From contig JALWSI010000222.1 in assembly GCA_027080315.1 (NCBI GenBank), forward strand, positions 1 to 39,292: 39,292 bases of DNA. The letters run 5' to 3'. A program made the position numbers and the translations under genes. This DNA comes from a bacterium. Lineage in GTDB: Bacteria > Thermosulfidibacterota > Thermosulfidibacteria > Thermosulfidibacterales > JALWSI01. Shown here piece after piece: positions 2,552-35,679 of the stretch; position 1 is the stretch's first letter, and each line of letters starts with the position of its first letter. The notes under the pieces are model-generated. The model saw nothing but the letters and a program-made list of their open reading frames with translations, ran no database searches and was not told the origin of the DNA.

Positions 2552-4792
2552 TTAGAATTTGGGCTTTTTGCCGTTCACAACCCGTTCTACGGCCTGTGCC
2601 AGCTCTTGCAGGGAGAAGGGCTTGGGCAAGGCACCCACAAAACCGTACTCTTTGAAGTTTGTCACAGCCTTATCCGAGCTTGCAACGCTGGTGATGATAA
2701 CCTTGGCCTTTGGGTCAACCTCAAGGATGGACCTGCAGGTCTCCTTACCATCCATGCTCTCTTCAGGCATCAACAGGTCAAGAATAACAACATCAAAAGG
2801 AGCACCTGCATCCTTAGCCTCTTTGAACTTTTCAACCGCCTCTTTTCCGTTGTCCACCGCCACCACACAGTAACCGAGGTTACTTAGCAGGGTGCAGAAG
2901 AGTTCCTTCTGGTAAGGGTCATCCTCCATCACCAGAACCTTGCCATTTCCTCTCAAACAGGCTTCAGAGGCGCTATCGGCCGCCGGCAACAACACTGTGA
3001 AGGTGCTTCCCTCTCCTAAGACAGACTCTACCTCAATATCTCCACCGTGCCTTTTCACCACAGAGTAGGCAATAGAGAGGCCCAACCCCCTACCCATCTC
3101 CTTTGTGGTGAAGAAGGGATCAAATATGCGTTTCTGCTGCTCTACGGGAATTCCAGGGCCAGCATCAGAAATCCTAACAGCCACATACCTACCATCTGGC
3201 AAAGAGAGATCGGGATCCCCTGCCGGAGGCACTGTGATATTTTCGGCCCTCACATAAACTATTCCGCCCTCAGGCATAGCTTCTTTGGCATTGGTGATTA
3301 TCTCGCTAAAGGCATTAAGGAGCTGATGGTAGTCTCCTTTCACATCCCAGAGATCGGGAGAGATGTCCAGAGAGATCCTCACCTTTCCACTCTCATTCCT
3401 TTTCAGAACATCTTGCACAGACTCACCCAAAAGCTCCTTCAATGAGACCACCTTGCTCACAGGAACGCCACCAGGGGAGAAGGTGATGAGCTTTCTGGTA
3501 AGGGTTGCCGCCCTCAACACGGCCCTCTCTGCCTTCTCAAGCATCTCATCGGCTTTTGTAGAAACCCCAAATTCTCTGGCCATGGTGATATTACCCACCA
3601 CTATGGCCAGTATGTTATTGAAATCGTGGGCTATGCCACCTGCCAGCTCTCCTACGGCCTGCAGTTTTCTAAACTGCAGCACCTGCTCCTGTAGCATGGT
3701 CTCCTTTGTCACATCCCTGCAGGCCACCAGCATCATCCAACCTTTCTTTTCCTCTTTGGGAATCTTGCTGGCCACTGCATCCACCCAAATCTCTACTCCG
3801 TCAGACCGTTTGAAGAGCCACTTAAAAGAGACCCTCTCTTTCACCAGAACATCAGAGGCCCAAGAATTGAACTTCTTGAAGGAAGGCACCCCGTCGGGCT
3901 GCTGTTCAGGAGAAATCTCAGCAGGATGTACCAAAACCTGGGACATCTCTTGACAGCCAAGCATCTCCAGCATAGCCCTGTTGCAATCGCTTATTCTCTC
4001 TCCGTCAAATATGAACATTGGCTCAGGGGAGTTCTCAAACATGGCTCTGAAACGGTATTCTGACATGCTGAGCTTCTTGGTCTCAGCAGAGACCCTTGTG
4101 GTACCCACAAAGATCAATAGAAGTCCAGCAATCCATAAAAATAGATCAACCATTACTGAACGGGCAATCTCTCGTCTTTCAAGAAGAAGATACGGCTTTA
4201 AGGGGACAAAAACGCTTATCCCTCCCCTTATGTCCCCAAGTTTGTATCCCTGTTTTGCATGGCACTTAAGACACGCCTTCTCGGTAACCAAAGGGAGCAT
4301 TAGACGTATGGCAGGACCGCCTCTGAAGGTGACCTTCTCCCAATACTCCTTCTCACCCTTCTCAAAAAGGGTAAGAGCCCTTCTCTCCCACTCATCTGGA
4401 GCGTTCTTGGGGTTTATGGGTTTCAAACTGGTTATATGGCCCTGGGTCCCCAGTCTCTTCTTCTGAAGCTCAAACACCTGTCTGGTCATGTAAGCGGGGT
4501 TTATCTTGGTGAGGAGCCTACCCGAAGGGGTCTTTATATCCCTCTCTGGCACCTTAAGGTAAGGATTAGGGGGAGTGGTAGGCGACACAGGGGCATAAAC
4601 CCCGCCGTGCATGGCGTTCCACGCCCTGAAGAGTATGGTCTCTTCAATAAAGGACCTTGCCGCCTCCCTCGCTGAGTTCAGGGCAAATCTATGGATGTGC
4701 TGTATGGTGTAGAGACAGGAGGCCCCTATCCCTAAGGTCCAAATAACCGCAAGAAAAATCCCCCACTTAACGATCTGTTTTCCAGACCTCAT
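2552..4792 (-). CDS. Hybrid sensor histidine kinase: TM, DUF3365-like heme-c (CxxCH) sensor domain, TM, PAS, HisKA, HATPase, receiver
   Basis: 746 aa. Motifs: CLKCH at residues 174-178 in EKACLKCHAKQGYKLGDIRGGISV; H-box GIAHDFNNIL; G-box EMGRGLGLSIA; C-terminal REC with VVILDLLMP. ATG is preceded by GGGGGAAGG. Confidence 0.92.
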   Translation of the reverse strand: MRSGKQIVKWGIFLAVIWTLGIGASCLYTIQHIHRFALNSAREAARSFIEETILFRAWNAMHGGVYAPVSPTTPPNPYLKVPERDIKTPSGRLLTKINPAYMTRQVFELQKKRLGTQGHITSLKPINPKNAPDEWERRALTLFEKGEKEYWEKVTFRGGPAIRLMLPLVTEKACLKCHAKQGYKLGDIRGGISVFVPLKPYLLLERREIARSVMVDLFLWIAGLLLIFVGTTRVSAETKKLSMSEYRFRAMFENSPEPMFIFDGERISDCNRAMLEMLGCQEMSQVLVHPAEISPEQQPDGVPSFKKFNSWASDVLVKERVSFKWLFKRSDGVEIWVDAVASKIPKEEKKGWMMLVACRDVTKETMLQEQVLQFRKLQAVGELAGGIAHDFNNILAIVVGNITMAREFGVSTKADEMLEKAERAVLRAATLTRKLITFSPGGVPVSKVVSLKELLGESVQDVLKRNESGKVRISLDISPDLWDVKGDYHQLLNAFSEIITNAKEAMPEGGIVYVRAENITVPPAGDPDLSLPDGRYVAVRISDAGPGIPVEQQKRIFDPFFTTKEMGRGLGLSIAYSVVKRHGGDIEVESVLGEGSTFTVLLPAADSASEACLRGNGKVLVMEDDPYQKELFCTLLSNLGYCVVAVDNGKEAVEKFKEAKDAGAPFDVVILDLLMPEESMDGKETCRSILEVDPKAKVIITSVASSDKAVTNFKEYGFVGALPKPFSLQELAQAVERVVNGKKPKF

Positions 4793-6280: not shown

Positions 6281-8056
6281 ATGGCCCAAAAGCTCTTCCT
6301 TTCAGGTGACGAAGCCATAGCCCGAGGGGCCTGGGAGGCAGGGGTTAAGTTCGCCTCTGCTTACCCCGGAACCCCGAGTACAGACATAGTGGACTCGGCA
6401 GCAAAGTATCCGGAGATCTATGCCCAGTGGTCCCCCAACGAGAAGGTAGCCTTAGAGGTGGGCATAGGGGCCTCAAGGGCAGGGGTGAGGGTGCTGGTGG
6501 CCATGAAGCACGTTGGGCTCAATGTAGCTGCGGATCCCTTCATGACCTTCTCCTACACAGGGGTTGGTGGTGGCACCCTCATCGTTAGCGCCGACGATCC
6601 CGGGATGCACAGCTCACAGAACGAACAGGACAACCGCACCTACGCCCGCATGGCGAAGGTCCCTATGCTTGAGCCTGCGGATCCCGAAGAGTGCCGCAGG
6701 CTGGCCCTATTTGCCTACCAGCTAAGCGAAGAGTACGACACCCCGGTCCTCATGCGGATCACCACCAGAATAGCCCATGGCAAAGGTATTGTGAACATGG
6801 GGGAGCGCCAAGAGGTTGAGCCTGCCGACTCTTGGAAGGCAGACACCGAAAAGTGGGTTATGCTGCCCACCTTTGCCCGCATGAGACACCCAAAGGTTGA
6901 AGAGAGCATCCAGAAACTGGCTGTGCTCTCTGATCAATGGGAAGAGAACAGAATCATCAATTTGGACGGAGAAGCGGATTTCGGCTTCATCTCAAGCGGA
7001 GTACCGTACCAGTACGTCCGTGAGGCCTTTCCAGAGTCCCCTGTGCTGAAGCTAACAATGACCCATCCCCTGCCTGAGGAGAAGATCAGAGAGTTTGCAA
7101 GCAAGGTCAAAAGACTCTACGTGGTTGAAGAGCTTGACCCCTTCCTTGAGATGGCCATCAAGGCCATGGGGATAAAGGTGATAGGCAAAGAGGCCTTCCC
7201 CATCCTTGGAGAGCTCTCAACAGAGCTGGTTTATGAAGGGGTTACAGGAAAAGAGAGAAAGCCCTTAATCAACGTTCCAGAGAACCTACCTGCAAGGCCC
7301 CCAACCTTGTGCGCCGGCTGCCCCCATAGAGGTGTCTTCACCGTGCTGCGTAAGCTGAAGGTGGTGGTGATGGGAGACATTGGCTGCTACACCCTGGCGG
7401 GATTGCCCCCCCTCAACGCCCTTCACGCCTGCGTATGCATGGGAGCAGGCATTGGCATGGCCCACGGCGCCACCATGGCAGGGGCACCTTCGGACAAGAC
7501 CGTTGCCATTATCGGGGACTCCACCTTCATGCACTCTGGGATAACCGGGGTGATGGACATAGTGTACAACAAGGGGGTGGCCACTGTGATTGTGCTTGAC
7601 AACTCAACCACCGCCATGACGGGAAAGCAGGATCACCCGGGAACCGGGGTCACCCTGAAAGGGGAGAAGACGAAGAAGGTCTCCATTGAGGCCATATGCC
7701 GAGCCGTAGGGGTTGAGAGGGTGCGCTACATTGATCCCTACGATCTTGAAGAGACCCAGAAGGTGCTGAAAGAAGAGCTTGAGGCCAAGGAGCCTTCGGT
7801 GATCATCACCACAAGGCCCTGCACCCTCATCACCAAAGAGAGGCCCGGCATCACCTACACCGTTGATGAAGATAAGTGCATAGGCTGCGGTCAGTGCTCA
7901 AATGTGGCCTGTGTGGCGGTCTTCTTGAGCGGCAACGGCACCAAAGTGGCCAAGGTGGATCCCCTGCTCTGCTACGGCTGCGGGGTGTGCGCCCAGGTCT
8001 GCCCCACAAAGGCTATTGTGAGCACCAACGGAGATGGAAAGGAGAAGAGGCCATGA
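6281..8056 (+). CDS. iorA: Indolepyruvate:ferredoxin oxidoreductase alpha subunit
   Basis: N-terminus MAQKLFLSGDEAIARGAWEAGVKFASAYPGTPST; TPP-binding GDSTFMHSG; C-terminal 2x[4Fe-4S] motifs CIGCGQC and CYGCGVCAQVCP. ATG 6281 is preferred over the track's GTG 6272. Confidence 0.9.
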   Translation: MAQKLFLSGDEAIARGAWEAGVKFASAYPGTPSTDIVDSAAKYPEIYAQWSPNEKVALEVGIGASRAGVRVLVAMKHVGLNVAADPFMTFSYTGVGGGTLIVSADDPGMHSSQNEQDNRTYARMAKVPMLEPADPEECRRLALFAYQLSEEYDTPVLMRITTRIAHGKGIVNMGERQEVEPADSWKADTEKWVMLPTFARMRHPKVEESIQKLAVLSDQWEENRIINLDGEADFGFISSGVPYQYVREAFPESPVLKLTMTHPLPEEKIREFASKVKRLYVVEELDPFLEMAIKAMGIKVIGKEAFPILGELSTELVYEGVTGKERKPLINVPENLPARPPTLCAGCPHRGVFTVLRKLKVVVMGDIGCYTLAGLPPLNALHACVCMGAGIGMAHGATMAGAPSDKTVAIIGDSTFMHSGITGVMDIVYNKGVATVIVLDNSTTAMTGKQDHPGTGVTLKGEKTKKVSIEAICRAVGVERVRYIDPYDLEETQKVLKEELEAKEPSVIITTRPCTLITKERPGITYTVDEDKCIGCGQCSNVACVAVFLSGNGTKVAKVDPLLCYGCGVCAQVCPTKAIVSTNGDGKEKRP

Positions 8057-8628
8057 AGAGCTACAACCTCCTCTTTGCAGGAGTGGGGGGACAAGGGGTG
8101 CTACTGGCCTCTGAGGTGATCTCTGCCTTGGCCATGAACCGTGGCTGGGATGTGAAGAAGAGCGAAATCCACGGCATGGCCCAGAGAGGGGGCAGTGTGG
8201 TCTCCCACGTGAGAATCTCTGAGACCCAGGTCTTCTCTCCCACCATCCCTCTGGGAGAAGCCACCCACCTCGTCTCCTTTGAAGAGCTTGAGACCCTCAG
8301 GTACCTTGACCACATGAGCCCCCAAGGACTGGTGATCATGAACCTCCAAAGGGTGAACCCCATGACGGTGCTTGCGGGAGCCGCCGAGTATCCCACCAAC
8401 GCCTCAGAACTCATAAAGGAAAGACTGAGGCTCATTGAGGTTAATGGGGTAGAGCTGGCCCAAAAGGCGGGGAATCCAAGGGCAGTTAACACGGTGCTTC
8501 TGGGTGTGCTCTCAAAGGACCTTCCCTTTGAAGAAGAGGAGTGGATAGACACCTTTAAGCAGGTGGTGCCCCCCAAGATACTTGAGATCAACCTCAAGGC
8601 CTTCAGGCTGGGGAGAGAGGCGGGCTAA
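8053..8628 (+). CDS. iorB: Indolepyruvate:ferredoxin oxidoreductase beta subunit
   Basis: Internal ATG of track ORF 7876..8628. MKSYNLLFAGVGGQGVLLASEVISALAMNRGWDVKKSEIHGMAQRGGSVVSHVRI is the IorB signature. ATGA overlap with the iorA stop. Confidence 0.9.
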   Translation: MKSYNLLFAGVGGQGVLLASEVISALAMNRGWDVKKSEIHGMAQRGGSVVSHVRISETQVFSPTIPLGEATHLVSFEELETLRYLDHMSPQGLVIMNLQRVNPMTVLAGAAEYPTNASELIKERLRLIEVNGVELAQKAGNPRAVNTVLLGVLSKDLPFEEEEWIDTFKQVVPPKILEINLKAFRLGREAG

Positions 8629-15604: not shown

Positions 15605-16228
15605 TTATCGGCTCAGGGTATCAGACCGCCAAGAGGAGAGCACCTCTTTGAGAAGAAGGTAGAGCCTGCGCACAGGGAGTCCCACCACATTGGTGTAAGA
15701 GCCTCTAACCTCCTCCACCAGACAGGCTCCATGCCCTTGAATACCATAGGCCCCTGCCTTGTCCATGGGCTCTCCCGTTGACACATAACGTTCAATCTCC
15801 TCTTCTGTGAGAACCCCGAATCTAACAAAACTCTCTTGAAAGAAGTCCTCTTCTCCCCCTGGATAGGCCACGCACACCCCTGTGATCACCCTGTGCTCTC
15901 GTCCAGAGAGCATCTGCAGCATCTCCACTGCCTCTTGGGGAGTTTCGGGCTTTCCCATAATTCTCTCATCCAACACCACTACTGTGTCCGCACCTATCAC
16001 CAAAGAGTTTGGATAAAGATCAAACACCTCCCTGCACTTCTGAGAGGCGGCCGTAAGAGCGTAATCCTCAGGAGACTGGCCACTATCAGGGCAGGGTTCT
16101 TTTGCAGGAATCACCACCTCAAATCGGGGTAGAATGAGACTTAAAAGCTCTCGCCTACGGGGGGATGCCGATGCCAGGATGAAGCTCACTCCCCCTGGCA
16201 CCGGCAAAAGCGTTTCAGGCAGGCTCAA
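15605..16228 (-). CDS. maf: Maf-family nucleoside triphosphate pyrophosphatase
   Basis: Maf signatures FILASASPRRRELLSLI, GADTVVVLD and KAGAYGIQG. The start is uncertain: TTG at 16228, or a GTG a few codons downstream. Confidence 0.9.
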   Translation of the reverse strand: MSLPETLLPVPGGVSFILASASPRRRELLSLILPRFEVVIPAKEPCPDSGQSPEDYALTAASQKCREVFDLYPNSLVIGADTVVVLDERIMGKPETPQEAVEMLQMLSGREHRVITGVCVAYPGGEEDFFQESFVRFGVLTEEEIERYVSTGEPMDKAGAYGIQGHGACLVEEVRGSYTNVVGLPVRRLYLLLKEVLSSWRSDTLSR

Positions 16229-16249
16229 GGTTCCTTGCCAACTACCTCT

Positions 16250-16588
16250 TTACTTACACTCACACGCAGGCACCCACTCCCAATGCACCTTACACTTTCC
16301 AGGCACAAAACGGGACTCGTAGTGCCCACAACCGCAGCAACACGGATCTGCCACCCAGACACACTCCCAGTGTCCCGGATCGCAGGTGGTAACTGCCTTC
16401 CAGTATCCCCTTACACAACAATCACAACAGTTGCAGCAATTGCAGGTGGTACAACAGGTGGTGCAGGTTGCGACTGCGCAGGTTCCACAGCAGTCACAGC
16501 ACTGCGCCTGTGACGTAGAAACACCCAAGCCAATCACCAAGGCCAGCGCCAAAAGCAGAGACGCCAGAATAGTCGCTCTTCTCCTCAT
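16250..16588 (-). CDS. Exported cysteine-rich small protein of unknown family (112 aa, 24 Cys)
   Basis: ATG is preceded by GAAGGAGGTG with 7 nt spacing. Signal peptide MRRRATILASLLLALALVIGLGVSTSQA. The mature part starts QCCDCCGTCAVATCTTCCTTCNCCNCCDCC. No family recognised. Coding status is inferred from the SD, the signal peptide and operon fit. Confidence 0.6.
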   Translation of the reverse strand: MRRRATILASLLLALALVIGLGVSTSQAQCCDCCGTCAVATCTTCCTTCNCCNCCDCCVRGYWKAVTTCDPGHWECVWVADPCCCGCGHYESRFVPGKCKVHWEWVPACECK

Positions 16589-16676
16589 GCGATACCACCT
16601 CCTTCACCCATCTAATCTTCACCTTTTACCTGCCCTTGCCCCTGCCTTTACAATTATTGAATGCAAAGGTCAAGCC

Positions 16677-17774
16677 CTATTTCCTCAACGGGCCTTTCTC
16701 TCGCCAGATGTTTGAGAGAATGCCAGCAGCGGCATAAGTGACCACCAGCGAGGATCCTCCGTAGCTCATTAAAGGCAAAGGAACCCCAACCACAGGCAAC
16801 AACCCCATGGTCATTCCAACGTTGATGAAGAAGTGGAGAAGGAACATGGTGGCAAGACCTGCCCCCACAAGGCAGCTGAAGCTATCCCTGGCATATCTTG
16901 ATACGGCGTATGATTGCCATATAAAGACAGCATAGAGAAGCAAGAGAAGAACACTGCCCACAAAGCCCCACTCTTCTGCAAATACCGCAAACACAAAATC
17001 GGTGCACTTCTCTGGAAGAAAGTTGAGTCTGCTCTGGGATCCGTGACCGTAGCCCTTCCCCAGAAGGCGTCCTGAGCCTATGGCTATCTTTGACTGAATC
17101 AGGTGATAACCCTTGTTAAGAGGATCTCTCTCGGGATTGAGCACCGCTCTTATCCTGTCCTTCTGATACTCCTTGAGCACCACATCGGAGTTCCAGATCA
17201 CTGGAATACAGAGGGCAAAGACCACCATGATACTCAAAGCGGTCTTGGGACGAACAGAACGGTGAAGCACCATAGTACCAGAGATACCCATCATCACCAG
17301 AGCCGTGCCAAGATCGGGCTGGCTTGCTGTGAGCAGAAAGAGAGGAGCCAGCACCCCAAGGGGTTTAAACAGGGTCACGAAGTTGTAAGGTTGTCTCTCC
17401 TTCTCAATCACCCAGGCAGTGGCAAGCACCAGAGAGATCTTTGCAAACTCAGAGGGCTGAATCTGGAAAATCCCCAAGTTTATACGACGCTGGGCCCCCA
17501 TGGTGGTAACACCTGCAACATCCACTGCCACCAAGAGAAGAACCGACAAGAGGTAAAGAGGACCTGTAAGGCGTCTCCAGGCATCAGAGGGAAGAATCAG
17601 CATGGTGAAATAGGCAGCCAAACCCAACATGTGCCAGAAAACCTGCTTCATAACCAGAGAAGGTGGAGAGACGCTGGATAGGGTAACCAGTCCCACCACT
17701 CCTAAAAGCACCATTGGAATAAAGAGCCTGAAGGGAGGCACCAACCTGCGGAGTAAGGAATCCTGGCTACTCAT
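16677..17774 (-). CDS. rodA: Rod shape-determining protein RodA (SEDS peptidoglycan glycosyltransferase)
   Basis: Multi-TM FtsW/RodA/SpoVE pattern with QPSEFAKI, DFVFAVFAEEWGF and PLPLMSYGGSS. I start it at the internal ATG 17774 (MSSQDS...), which overlaps the mrdA stop by 8 nt, rather than at 17867. Confidence 0.92.
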   Translation of the reverse strand: MSSQDSLLRRLVPPFRLFIPMVLLGVVGLVTLSSVSPPSLVMKQVFWHMLGLAAYFTMLILPSDAWRRLTGPLYLLSVLLLVAVDVAGVTTMGAQRRINLGIFQIQPSEFAKISLVLATAWVIEKERQPYNFVTLFKPLGVLAPLFLLTASQPDLGTALVMMGISGTMVLHRSVRPKTALSIMVVFALCIPVIWNSDVVLKEYQKDRIRAVLNPERDPLNKGYHLIQSKIAIGSGRLLGKGYGHGSQSRLNFLPEKCTDFVFAVFAEEWGFVGSVLLLLLYAVFIWQSYAVSRYARDSFSCLVGAGLATMFLLHFFINVGMTMGLLPVVGVPLPLMSYGGSSLVVTYAAAGILSNIWREKGPLRK

Positions 17775-33502: not shown

Positions 33503-33589
33503 GCCGAAGTGGCGGAACTGGTAGACGCGCTATCTTGAGGGGGTAGTGGGCGTTTGCCCGTGCGGGTTCGAGTCCCGCCTTCGGCACCA
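33503..33589 (+). tRNA. tRNA-Leu (anticodon GAG), long variable arm, CCA encoded
   Basis: Acceptor GCCGAAG/CTTCGGC, anticodon arm CTATC-TTGAGGG-GGTAG, long variable arm TGGGCGTTTGCCCGT, T-arm GCGGG-TTCGAGT-CCCGC, then ACCA. Confidence 0.93.
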
Positions 33590-33594
33590 TCACT

Positions 33595-33671
33595 CGGGGC
33601 GTGGCGCAGTCTGGTAGCGCACTGGCATGGGGGGTCAGTGGTCGGCCGTTCGAATCGGCTCGCCCCGACCA
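33595..33671 (+). tRNA. tRNA-Pro (anticodon GGG), CCA encoded
   Basis: Acceptor CGGGGCG/CGCCCCG (C1-G72, typical of bacterial tRNA-Pro), anticodon arm CTGGC-ATGGGGG-GTCAG, T-arm GGCCG-TTCGAAT-CGGCT. It begins 5 nt after tRNA-Leu. Confidence 0.93.
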
Positions 33672-33703
33672 TTCTTCCCACTCCCAAGGGGAGGTTTTCT
33701 GAG

Positions 33704-34459
33704 ATGCTTATCCTTCTCACCAACGACGACGGTATCTGGGCTAAAGGCCTGAAGGTTCTTGAGCAATCCCTTTCAAGCTTCGGCACCTGCTGCGTAGTGG
33801 CCCCCGACCGAGAAAAAAGCGCAGCAAGCCACTCCGTCACCCTCCACCGCCCCCTACGGGTTGAGGAGGTAGCACCAAACAGGTTCGCGGTGGACGGCAC
33901 TCCCACCGACTGCGTGATCCTCGGGGTTCACAAGCTCGCAGGCAAGAAGCCCGATCTATTGGTCTCTGGGATAAACGACGGGGGAAACATGGGAGACGAT
34001 GTTAGCTACTCCGGCACAGTGTCCGCCGCCATTGAAGGCACCATTCTGGGAGTCCCCTCCATAGCGGTCTCTTTAGCCCGGGGAGAGCACCGCAACTTTG
34101 AGACCGCAGGAGAGGTGATCAAAAAGATAGTCCCCTTAGTGGCAGAGAACGGCCTTCCCAAAGACGCCCTTCTGAATGTGAATGTTCCAGACGTGGAGAG
34201 TTTTGAAGAGCTGAAGGGAGTCAGGTGGACCCGCCTGGGAAAGCTCTCCTACGTTGACACCTTAGCAGAGATGAAGGATCCCCGGGGCAAGACCTACTAC
34301 TGGGTGGGAGGCACCCCGGTCAGGGAAGATGAGAACGGGGCAGACACCGATCTGGTAGCCGTTGAAGAGGGATACGTCTCCATCACTCCAATAAGGCTTG
34401 ACCTAACCCATAACAGGGCCCTGAGAGAGCTCAGAGAAAGATGGAAGGTCTCTCTATGA
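33704..34459 (+). CDS. surE: 5'/3'-nucleotidase SurE
   Basis: [19 protein letters not shown]...[25 protein letters not shown] is the SurE signature. The true start is the internal ATG 33704; the 5' part of track ORF 33554.. reads through the tRNA genes. Confidence 0.93.
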
Positions 34460-35109: not shown

Positions 35110-35136
35110 GGAAGGATCAAACGATCTATGGAGAGT

Positions 35137-35213
35137 CGGGGCGTAGCGCAGCCTGGTAGCGCACCAGCTTCGGGAGTTGGGTGTCGGCCGTTCGAATCGG
35201 CTCGCCCCGACCA
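35137..35213 (+). tRNA. tRNA-Pro (anticodon CGG), CCA encoded
   Basis: Acceptor CGGGGCG/CGCCCCG, anticodon arm CCAGC-TTCGGGA-GTTGG. The T-arm and 3' acceptor are identical to the tRNA-Pro(GGG) at 33595. Confidence 0.93.
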
Positions 35214-35241
35214 TTATTCCTCTCATTCAACCCATCCCACC

Positions 35242-35679
35242 ATGATAGGAGTGATTGGAGCAGCATCACCACCTCAGGAACTAAGGGAAGTGGCCTATCT
35301 CGTGGGAAAAGGCATAGCTCAAAGAGGGTGGATTCTTGTCTGTGGAGGACGCACCGGTGTTATGGAGGAGTCTGCAAAAGGGGCAAGGGATGCTGGAGGA
35401 ATCACCGTGGGAATCCTGCCTTCTGGATCCACCGAAGAAGCGAATCCTTACATTATGTGCCCCATAGCAACAAACATGGGCTCTGCCAGAAACGCTATTA
35501 TCATCTCTACCTCCAAGGCCCTTGTGGCCATCGGAGGAGGATACGGCACCCTGTCTGAGATAGCTTTGGCCCTTAAGGCAGGCAAAAACGTGATAGGTCT
35601 TAAGACCTGGGACGTTCCAGGGGTGGTAAAAGCAGCAGACATAGAACACGCCTTCAAGCTGCTGGAGGAGACGGTGTGA
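35242..35679 (+). CDS. TIGR00725-family protein (LOG/SLOG Rossmann-like, lysine-decarboxylase-like fold)
   Basis: 145 aa. MIGVIGAAS...LVCGGRTGVMEESAKGARDAGGITVGILP...ALVAIGGGYGTLSEIALAL matches the GGxxGxM and GGxGTxxE pattern of LOG-like proteins. The start is the internal ATG of track ORF 35128.., whose 5' part is the tRNA. Confidence 0.7.
   Translation: MIGVIGAASPPQELREVAYLVGKGIAQRGWILVCGGRTGVMEESAKGARDAGGITVGILPSGSTEEANPYIMCPIATNMGSARNAIIISTSKALVAIGGGYGTLSEIALALKAGKNVIGLKTWDVPGVVKAADIEHAFKLLEETV

Follow-up and report, generated by a model that had tools for sequence, protein, structure and literature searches.

A lineage-restricted gene between rodA and maf encodes a predicted exported protein with an unusually dense cysteine block

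The stretch of DNA studied here, which we call the window, is the whole of the 39,292 nucleotides (nt) analysed: contig JALWSI010000222.1 of GenBank assembly GCA_027080315.1, from a bacterium placed in the Thermosulfidibacterota. We are concerned with a single minus-strand open reading frame (ORF) in this window, at 16250..16588, which lies between rodA and maf; the ORF and its product are both called X below. Re-reading the sequence, we find that X encodes 112 amino acids (aa). A first-pass annotation of the same DNA, made from the letters alone, had described X as an exported, cysteine-rich protein without a nameable family. The ORF, its Shine-Dalgarno (SD) sequence, the 88-nt spacer from the rodA stop to the X start, the TTGACC hexamer and the 21-nt gap to maf were all found again where that annotation had placed them. 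The features of the locus, in the order in which the minus strand is read, are the following.

16677..17774, minus strand: rodA, the upstream neighbour (PF01098 FTSW_RODA_SPOVE).
16668..16673, minus strand: -35 hexamer TTGACC of the putative promoter of X itself; TTGAC is invariant in 5/5 loci, and the 17-nt spacer that follows it is scrambled.
16645..16650, minus strand: -10-like hexamer TAAAGG, exactly 17 nt past the -35 hexamer; TAA is invariant.
16589..16640, minus strand: purine-rich 5' leader, about 50 nt long and almost unchanged across five loci, which includes the SD sequence.
16505..16588, minus strand: signal peptide, residues 1-28 (MRRRATILASLLLALALVIGLGVSTSQA), with a predicted signal peptidase I cut after S-x-A.
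16415..16504, minus strand: poly-Cys block, residues 29-58 (QCCDCCGTCAVATCTTCCTTCNCCNCCDCC), 15 Cys in 30 residues, with 6 CC doublets.
16253..16414, minus strand: C-terminal 54-aa Trp-rich domain, residues 59-112, predicted to be a beta domain; nearly invariant, with 9 Cys, of which 8 are invariant.
16250..16252, minus strand: stop codon TAA of X, followed by a 21-nt spacer to the TTG start of maf (16228).
15605..16228, minus strand: maf, the downstream neighbour (Pfam Maf, E 4e-60).

The predicted mature protein contains 24 Cys among its 84 residues (28.6%), and 15 of these fall in residues 30-58, a recount that agrees with the earlier figure of about 29%. When all stop-to-stop frames in the window are compared, X peaks at 16 Cys per 40-residue stretch; the runner-up has 8, and no other frame reaches 9.

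Besides the copy in the window, we find four X orthologs (three complete, one partial), each of them sited between rodA and maf. The closest is P0001, at locus L001, which has 115 aa and is 84% identical to X; it was the one homolog in a large protein collection. It lies on a contig of a metagenome-assembled genome (MAG) whose gene order, MutS2-PBP2-RodA-X-Maf-CCG/Fer4-Alr, is the same as in the window. A second complete ortholog has 109 aa (L090), and a metagenome scan supplied a partial X that represents a third variant (L088). The remaining one sits in a 468-nt rodA-maf gap that holds no called gene:

L089 2120-2473, plus strand: X ortholog of 117 aa, in GCA_964646015.1.

As this uncalled copy illustrates, Cys-rich small genes of low complexity can be systematically under-annotated.

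Given such a composition, one may ask whether X is a gene at all, or whether it is an ORF that arose by chance in a low-complexity, (TGY)n-like spacer, or the shadow of a plus-strand ORF that is the true product. The doubt is a reasonable one: the Cys block is of low complexity, gene callers passed over X in one genome, and two plus-strand frames are open across it. The comparison of X with its orthologs tells against all of this. Between the window and L001, the whole X gene differs at 12 first, 3 second and 44 third codon positions. Within the mature part there are 28 synonymous and 3 non-synonymous codon changes, that is, a non-synonymous divergence (dN) of 0.020 and a synonymous divergence (dS) of 1.19 (NG86); the C-terminal 54 aa account for 21 synonymous changes and 1 non-synonymous change. 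For the antisense frame without a stop in either genome, the counts are instead 0 synonymous and 31 non-synonymous changes, and the remaining frames contain stops. The two genes differ by a single indel, of 9 nt and in frame, and every other indel among the orthologs is likewise in frame. The SD sequence, the start codon and the features of the signal peptide are conserved as well.

The other orthologs extend this pattern. In all ten ortholog pairs the synonymous sites are saturated, and mature dN ranges from 0.02 to 0.12. Twenty-one of the 28 Cys columns are invariant among the five orthologs, and 18 of those 21 mix TGT and TGC, which indicates that selection acts on the cysteine itself and not on the DNA. 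The whole-gene dN/dS of X, 0.068, equals that of PBP2 (0.068) and is close to that of RodA (0.073), and the values for Maf, the CCG protein and Alr are higher (0.16-0.19). By the evidence of its codons, then, X is a real gene under strong purifying selection. Codon-level selection, both in the L001 comparison and across all ortholog pairs, rules out the spurious-ORF reading, to which we assign practically no probability.

The first-pass annotation had likewise taken the minus-strand ORF for a real gene, while allowing that one of the plus-strand ORFs might prove to be the conserved product. Its judgement is borne out: selection specific to the minus-strand frame is clear in the five orthologs, the plus-strand frames are unselected, and the contrast between 28/3 and 0/31 changes decides for X. 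A comparison of the rodA-maf junction in relatives, which it had also proposed, finds the minus-strand frame and the 21 of 28 Cys columns preserved. The two plus-strand ORFs antisense to X, 16235-16513 (+) and 16386-16715 (+), carry no sign of selection; they stay open since TGY/ACN/AAY/GAY codons yield no stop when reverse-complemented.

The protein falls into three parts, of which the first is the signal peptide. It consists of an MRR n-region and an 18-residue h-region with a mean Kyte-Doolittle hydropathy of 2.4-3.0; ahead of the cut, Ser (-3) and Ala (-1) do not vary. The RR pair is invariant too. As read from the sequence, the RRxFLK context of a twin-arginine translocation (Tat) signal is absent, and the c-region has no basic residue; the peptide looks Sec-type, not Tat-type. 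The cleavage region reads S-[QS]-A/Q(N)CC (the slash marks the cut); the residue that precedes the first Cys is Gln or Asn, and the lipobox L-x-[GAS]-C is absent. Between the window and L001 this segment has a dN of 0.28, far above the 0.02 of the mature part; such fast evolution is as expected of signal peptides. Thus the signal peptide recognized in the first pass holds up on its conserved n- and h-regions, its S-x-A features and its fast evolution, and the verdict 'Sec or possibly Tat' can probably be narrowed to Sec.

The second part is the poly-Cys block. In the orthologs it comprises 27-35 residues with 13-18 Cys (48-51%) and 5-7 CC doublets, and to our knowledge this, at about 50% Cys, is the densest natural thiol array in a bacterial protein. 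The residues other than Cys are drawn only from T/N/D/A/G/S/V/Q, with no aromatic or large hydrophobic residue among them. In an AlphaFold2 (AF2) model the block has a predicted local distance difference test score (pLDDT) below 50, and it is predicted to be disordered in the apo state. Its DNA follows a (TGY-TGY-RAY / ACN-TGY)-like triplet pattern, and the orthologs differ in it by in-frame indels of 9-27 nt. This suggests that the block grows and shrinks by repeat slippage. The mature orthologs accordingly span 81-89 residues, with 25.9-29.2% Cys. Total Cys in the complete orthologs, the window included, is 24, 25, 21 and 26, so that both parities occur; variable and sometimes odd totals of this kind argue against a fixed disulfide framework.

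The third part is the C-terminal domain, for which AF2 predicts four long strands, at mature residues 33-41, 45-52, 60-67 and 71-79, with pLDDT 77-90. The domain is predicted to be a four-strand beta-meander forming a single sheet. It contains 8-9 aromatic residues, including 5 Trp, and the poly-Cys block contains none. If the register follows from strand alternation, one face of the sheet would present W35, W46, W50, Y62, F66, W75 and W77 together with C41, C48 and C71, and the other face would present K/H/E/R and Val. The 8 invariant Cys of the domain lie mostly in loop 2 (PC-x-CGC), in the turns and in the C-terminal C-x-C; given the topology of a meander, they and the end of the block would share one pole. 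The first-pass annotation had seen in this region three degenerate His-aromatic-Glu units separated by CCCGC and CxC. The units do exist in the sequence, but they correspond to predicted beta-strands, and two of their three His are unconserved: L089 replaces them (H to Y and H to N). The middle Cys of CCC, moreover, is Ser in two orthologs.

Transcription and translation signals precede the gene. The -10-like hexamer recurs at the same spacing in the orthologs, as TAAAAG, TAAATA, TAATAG and TAAAAG. Conserved hexamers flanking a diverged spacer are the signature of a real promoter, and we infer that X has one. A consensus promoter scanner did not pick it up, the -10 being too weak. To the earlier description of TTGACC accompanied by only a weak -10 can be added the TAAAGG at exactly 17 nt, with its conserved TAA. 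Terminator-like sites are absent between rodA and X and between X and maf, so that X is probably also co-transcribed with its neighbours.

The leader contains the SD sequence GAAGGAGGTG at 16596-16605, 7 nt ahead of the ATG, the near-perfect match noticed in the first pass. Its duplex with the anti-SD, at -16.6 kcal/mol, is the strongest among 28 window genes, and X looks highly expressed. No Rfam family matches the leader at a threshold as loose as E <= 10, and the five loci reveal no covarying pairs or conserved structure in it; it folds worse than shuffled controls (z = +1.15). On these three grounds we reject a riboswitch or other structured leader. Its near-invariance, despite saturated synonymous sites, could reflect an operator, a small-RNA site or a translational enhancer. 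The leader also holds a short upstream ORF (uORF) at 16585-16611 (-), ATG GGT GAA GGA GGT GGT ATC GCA TGA, which would encode MGEGGGIA. It has an SD-like AAGGTGA of its own, its stop overlaps the start of X (ATGA), and it is kept in 4/5 orthologs. We do not count it as a functional element: its ATG is missing in L089, and the conserved SD region probably brings it along by chance.

The distribution of X bears on its origin. The relatives of the window's RodA form a tight group, at 100, 86, 85, 84 and 76% identity, after which identity drops to <=48%. X occurs only in genomes whose RodA is >=76% identical, that is, in five uncultured bacterial genomes. Outside this clade, tblastn in all 94 loci, among them RodA neighbourhoods from many phyla, yields no X. 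One match, in the Saccharibacteria locus L072, was discarded: it is an out-of-frame, stop-interrupted stretch within rodA, an artefact of composition scoring. In the nearest outgroup with maf after rodA (RodA 48%), there is a 4-nt overlap of the two genes and no X (L091 7077-7080; L092 5169-5172). In an outgroup with RodA at 45%, another gene follows 24 nt after rodA, and both maf and X are absent. The named RodA relatives at 45-49% are Deferrisoma, Thermosulfidibacteraceae, Deferribacteres and 'Deltaproteobacteria' MAGs; in species-representative genome contigs, RodA identity is <=42% among the matches listed.

Since rodA and maf overlap in the outgroup and X is confined to the clade, we regard X as a lineage-restricted insertion into a formerly coupled junction. 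The 4-nt overlap implies translational coupling of rodA and maf, which the insertion of X would have broken in the window's clade. On this comparison, the ancestral rodA-maf junction received X along with a sigma-70-like promoter that belongs to X, much as the first-pass annotation had supposed when it spoke of an insertion between the two genes. The maf gene of the X clade has a TTG start and only a modest SD.

Searches for relatives returned almost nothing beyond the orthologs. Pfam, NCBIfam, PADLOC and PHROGs give no family for X at E <= 10, and PDB sequences give no match with either a single sequence or a profile. A Foldseek comparison of the predicted model with the PDB finds no fold match (best E 0.88, generic hairpins only). 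A word search of 5.8 billion proteins, run with the single sequence and with a five-ortholog profile, recovers only P0001; an exhaustive phmmer (HMMER) search of 1.84 billion representatives recovers only P0001 and P0002; a metagenome pattern scan recovers only two close orthologs; and viral contigs contain no match to X.

P0002 is a 768-aa BNR/Asp-box beta-propeller protein with a Pfam BNR match of its own, and its HMMER E-value against X is 4e-5. The value arises because its seven blades each match weakly and the scores sum. Like a blade of P0002, X has a predicted four-strand beta-meander, a ...TT-x-x-x-G-H-W-x-x-x-W... hairpin and an ...F-V... strand. Unlike the blade, X lacks the Asp-box SxDxGxTW; it has no Pfam BNR match, and hhalign gives the pair a probability of 8%. 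We therefore reject P0002 as a homolog and take the likeness as convergence. Sequence, profile and fold searches thus agree with the earlier remark that no family could be named: as far as these comparisons reach, X is a new orphan sequence family without detectable relative. In the literature, too, we found no precedent for an exported bacterial metallothionein-like or poly-cysteine protein.

The genes around X are of a housekeeping kind: MutS2, PBP2, RodA, Maf, a CCG/Fer4 oxidoreductase, Alr, three GT4 glycosyltransferases and an iron-containing alcohol dehydrogenase (Fe-ADH). Among the window genes, a ferredoxin-dependent 2-oxoacid oxidoreductase, the CCG/Fer4 protein and the Fe-ADH are of anaerobe type. 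Together they suggest an anaerobic lifestyle of the host, which makes a reduced periplasm plausible. The 39-kb window contains no radical-SAM, MNIO/DUF692, Dsb or metal-transport genes, and no maturase, Dsb or RiPP genes (RiPPs being peptides that are ribosomally made and post-translationally modified) are found around the other X loci either, where the flanking genes are similar.

What might such a protein do? Our preferred reading, which we hold tentatively and at somewhat less than even confidence, is that X is a periplasmic metallothionein-like protein that binds or buffers metal through thiolates. The block tolerates changes in length and in Cys number (13-18), the totals can be odd, and composition and disorder resemble those of metallothioneins; thiolate chemistry therefore fits better than fixed disulfides. 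X would cross the inner membrane unfolded via Sec and be cut after S-x-A, releasing a periplasmic protein of 81-89 residues, and, having been exported unfolded, it would acquire any metal or disulfide in the periplasm. There the thiolates of the block and the loop Cys of the domain would wrap soft metals, namely Cu(I), Zn/Cd and possibly As(III)/Sb(III), as metal-thiolate clusters; metallothioneins fold only on metal binding (PMC7558416). Metals might in this way be buffered or detoxified in the periplasm before they reach the cytoplasm or the cell-wall machinery, with the beta domain serving as a folded scaffold, or as an oligomerization or docking module. Mammalian metallothionein binds 7 M(II) or 12 Cu(I) with 20 Cys. 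By analogy, some 24 Cys might have a capacity of roughly 8 divalent ions or >12 Cu(I) ions.

Several observations weigh against metal binding. There are no metal-resistance or metal-sensing genes nearby, and no metal-regulator-type palindrome in the promoter. If the genomic setting hints at any function, it is one in the cell envelope, with PBP2-RodA upstream of X and Maf and alanine racemase downstream of it. Unlike metallothioneins, the C-terminal domain is rich in aromatic residues, and conservation so extreme implies that it has a specific partner or fold, which simple chelation would not require. A His/Glu metal site on the sheet is unlikely, since two of the three domain His are not conserved. 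Finally, the AF2 model was built on a two-sequence alignment.

One can frame the metal-binding idea more broadly, as a new class, founded by X, of Sec-exported 'periplasmic metallothioneins' that combine a disordered block of about 50% Cys with a novel Trp-rich beta domain. Such a class would have originated recently, partly via triplet-repeat expansion, would have become fixed in the elongasome operon of one deep-branching lineage, and would now be constrained like RodA and PBP2. We consider this fuller scenario possible but doubtful. In a variant of it, the beta domain may dock the thiol array on the Rod complex or on peptidoglycan, so that metal or redox protection would be coupled to the synthesis of the wall.

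The envelope setting invites a different interpretation, namely that X is a disulfide cross-linked envelope protein, in which Cys of the block would pair in disulfides, between molecules or within one, much as they do in keratin-associated proteins or chlamydial OmcA/OmcB, and the Trp face would bind glycan or a component of the elongasome. Its appeal lies in the fixed place of X in the mrdA-rodA-X-maf-...-alr cluster of 5/5 genomes, in the extreme conservation of the domain, which suggests a specific partner, and in the one predicted sheet face that carries W35, W46, W50, Y62, F66, W75 and W77; aromatic platforms are typical of carbohydrate-binding modules. There is precedent as well, in the small Cys-rich exported proteins that rigidify bacterial envelopes by disulfides (PMC6752827). 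A cross-linking role, however, sits badly with a block of variable length, with a Cys number that ranges over 21-26 and with odd totals in two orthologs. The anaerobe-type genes make an oxidizing periplasm less likely, and no Dsb or VKOR gene is seen, a weak point given that 39 kb of DNA were covered. Nor does X match any carbohydrate-binding or OmcA family, and it has no lipobox. On balance, we judge a structural disulfide protein unlikely, though it is the strongest of the rival readings. Of the two roles that the first-pass annotation had offered as speculation, a thiolate-rich periplasmic binder and a disulfide-knotted envelope protein, the evidence tips slightly to the former.

Dense exported thiols whose number may change could also serve a periplasmic thiol/persulfide redox protein or sulfur carrier, that is, a buffer of polysulfide, sulfane sulfur or oxidants in a sulfidic habitat. 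The anaerobe-type genes of the window would suit such a role, as would the samples of the outgroup genomes, which are labelled like those of hydrothermal-deposit studies (judging from the sample names only). Yet no sulfur-metabolism gene adjoins X. The known carriers Sud, TusA, DsrE and rhodanese work with a folded domain that has one or two catalytic Cys, unlike a disordered block of 50% Cys, and nothing positively separates this idea from metal binding; we rate it as improbable. More improbable still is that X is a RiPP precursor, bufferin-like or subject to some other Cys modification, with maturases encoded elsewhere in the genome. RiPP precursors nearly always cluster with their enzymes, and neither the window nor the ortholog flanks contain MNIO/DUF692, DUF2063, radical-SAM or other maturase genes. 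X does not match DUF2282, and MNIOs need O2, which would be a poor fit with anaerobe-type genes. What speaks for a RiPP is that bufferin precursors are small, Cys-containing periplasmic copper binders with a Sec signal (PMC11626156). For the same reason a signal peptide does not exclude RiPPs, although the first-pass annotation had counted it, along with the missing radical-SAM gene, against SCIFF/ranthipeptide precursors; it is the genomic context that sets the class aside.

Some other observations in the window stand apart from X. The SurE ORF at 33554-34459 (+) overlaps tRNA-Leu and tRNA-Pro (33503-33671), and its Pfam match starts at residue 53; the SLOG/LDcluster4 ORF at 35128-35679 (+) overlaps tRNA-Pro (35137-35213), and its Pfam match starts at residue 39. 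Such late-starting matches place the true starts of both genes downstream of the tRNAs. A 178-aa ORF at 8061-8597 (-), which has no Pfam match, lies antisense to the POR gamma-domain gene at 7876-8628 (+) and is probably a shadow ORF. The gene at 2552-4792 (-) encodes a hybrid histidine kinase/response regulator, with a Tll0287-like domain at its N-terminus and with PAS domains, which may sense redox state or a ligand and has no evident link to X.

If X binds metal, bacteria would have in it a metallothionein-like protein that acts beyond the cytoplasm and needs no enzymatic modification; its fold would be new, and its thiol density would be well above that of known metallothioneins. It would then bear on metal tolerance in anaerobic, possibly hydrothermal, habitats and on the design of bioremediation. 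Whatever its function, X offers a clean case of a gene that is young, confined to one lineage and selected as strongly as its essential neighbours, and that was inserted into a formerly translationally coupled pair. It is also a gene that gene callers can miss, and Cys-rich small ORFs are under-annotated. Its reach is limited, in that X is carried by five uncultured genomes only and its proposed function is read from sequence.

It remains to set X beside the systems that it most resembles. Like the metallothioneins (SmtA/BmtA, MymT and PmtA; MT-1/2), X is small and very Cys-rich, with CC, CxC and CxxC between small polar residues, and its Cys number varies among relatives. Unlike them, it has no Pfam or NCBIfam metallothionein match at E <= 10 and no match to a PDB chain. 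Metallothioneins typically contain about 30% Cys, and the block of X, at 48-51%, is denser. The described bacterial metallothioneins are cytoplasmic, whereas X is exported by a predicted signal peptide. X further adds an aromatic-rich predicted beta domain, where metallothioneins are expected to have few or no aromatics. The block is nevertheless metallothionein-like in being predicted disordered in the apo state, and it would be expected to fold around metal-thiolate clusters (PMC7558416).

Other small Cys-rich proteins differ from X in other ways. SCIFF/ranthipeptide precursors are unlike it in that X has a signal peptide, no radical-SAM gene near it and no TIGR/NCBIfam match. Bufferins, which counter metal stress in the periplasm, share with X small size, Cys and a Sec signal peptide (PMC11626156). 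They are distinguished, however, by 4, 6 or 12 Cys that are conserved, by a signature (DUF2282 or BUF_6/12Cys) and by adjoining MNIO (DUF692) and DUF2063 genes (PMC11626156), whereas X, with its 21-26 Cys, lacks that signature, and neither the window nor the ortholog flanks contain those genes. OmcA, which forms part of an outer membrane complex with OmcB and MOMP, is a small, exported, Cys-rich chlamydial protein with a structural role in the envelope (PMC6752827). It is a lipoprotein, oxidized by Dsb into intermolecular disulfides; X has no lipobox and no homology to it, its Cys count is variable and sometimes odd, and its genome carries anaerobe-type genes.

X also resembles the Csp1-type copper stores in being thiol-rich and, by prediction, exported. 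Csp1 is exported to the periplasm and is lined with Cys whose thiolates bind many Cu(I) ions (PMC7558416; PMC9484137). The first-pass annotation had set Csp proteins aside as four-helix bundles, and indeed X is predicted to form no such bundle and has no Pfam, PDB sequence or fold match to them; exported, Cys-lined copper stores of the Csp1 type do exist, however (PMC7558416), a point that it had passed over. Csp1 is a pre-folded tetramer of four-helix bundles, exported by Tat, whereas X combines a disordered block with a beta-sheet, both predicted, behind a signal that looks Sec-type. By sequence and fold, then, X is neither a metallothionein nor a Csp1-type copper store; in its proposed function, by analogy, it resembles both.

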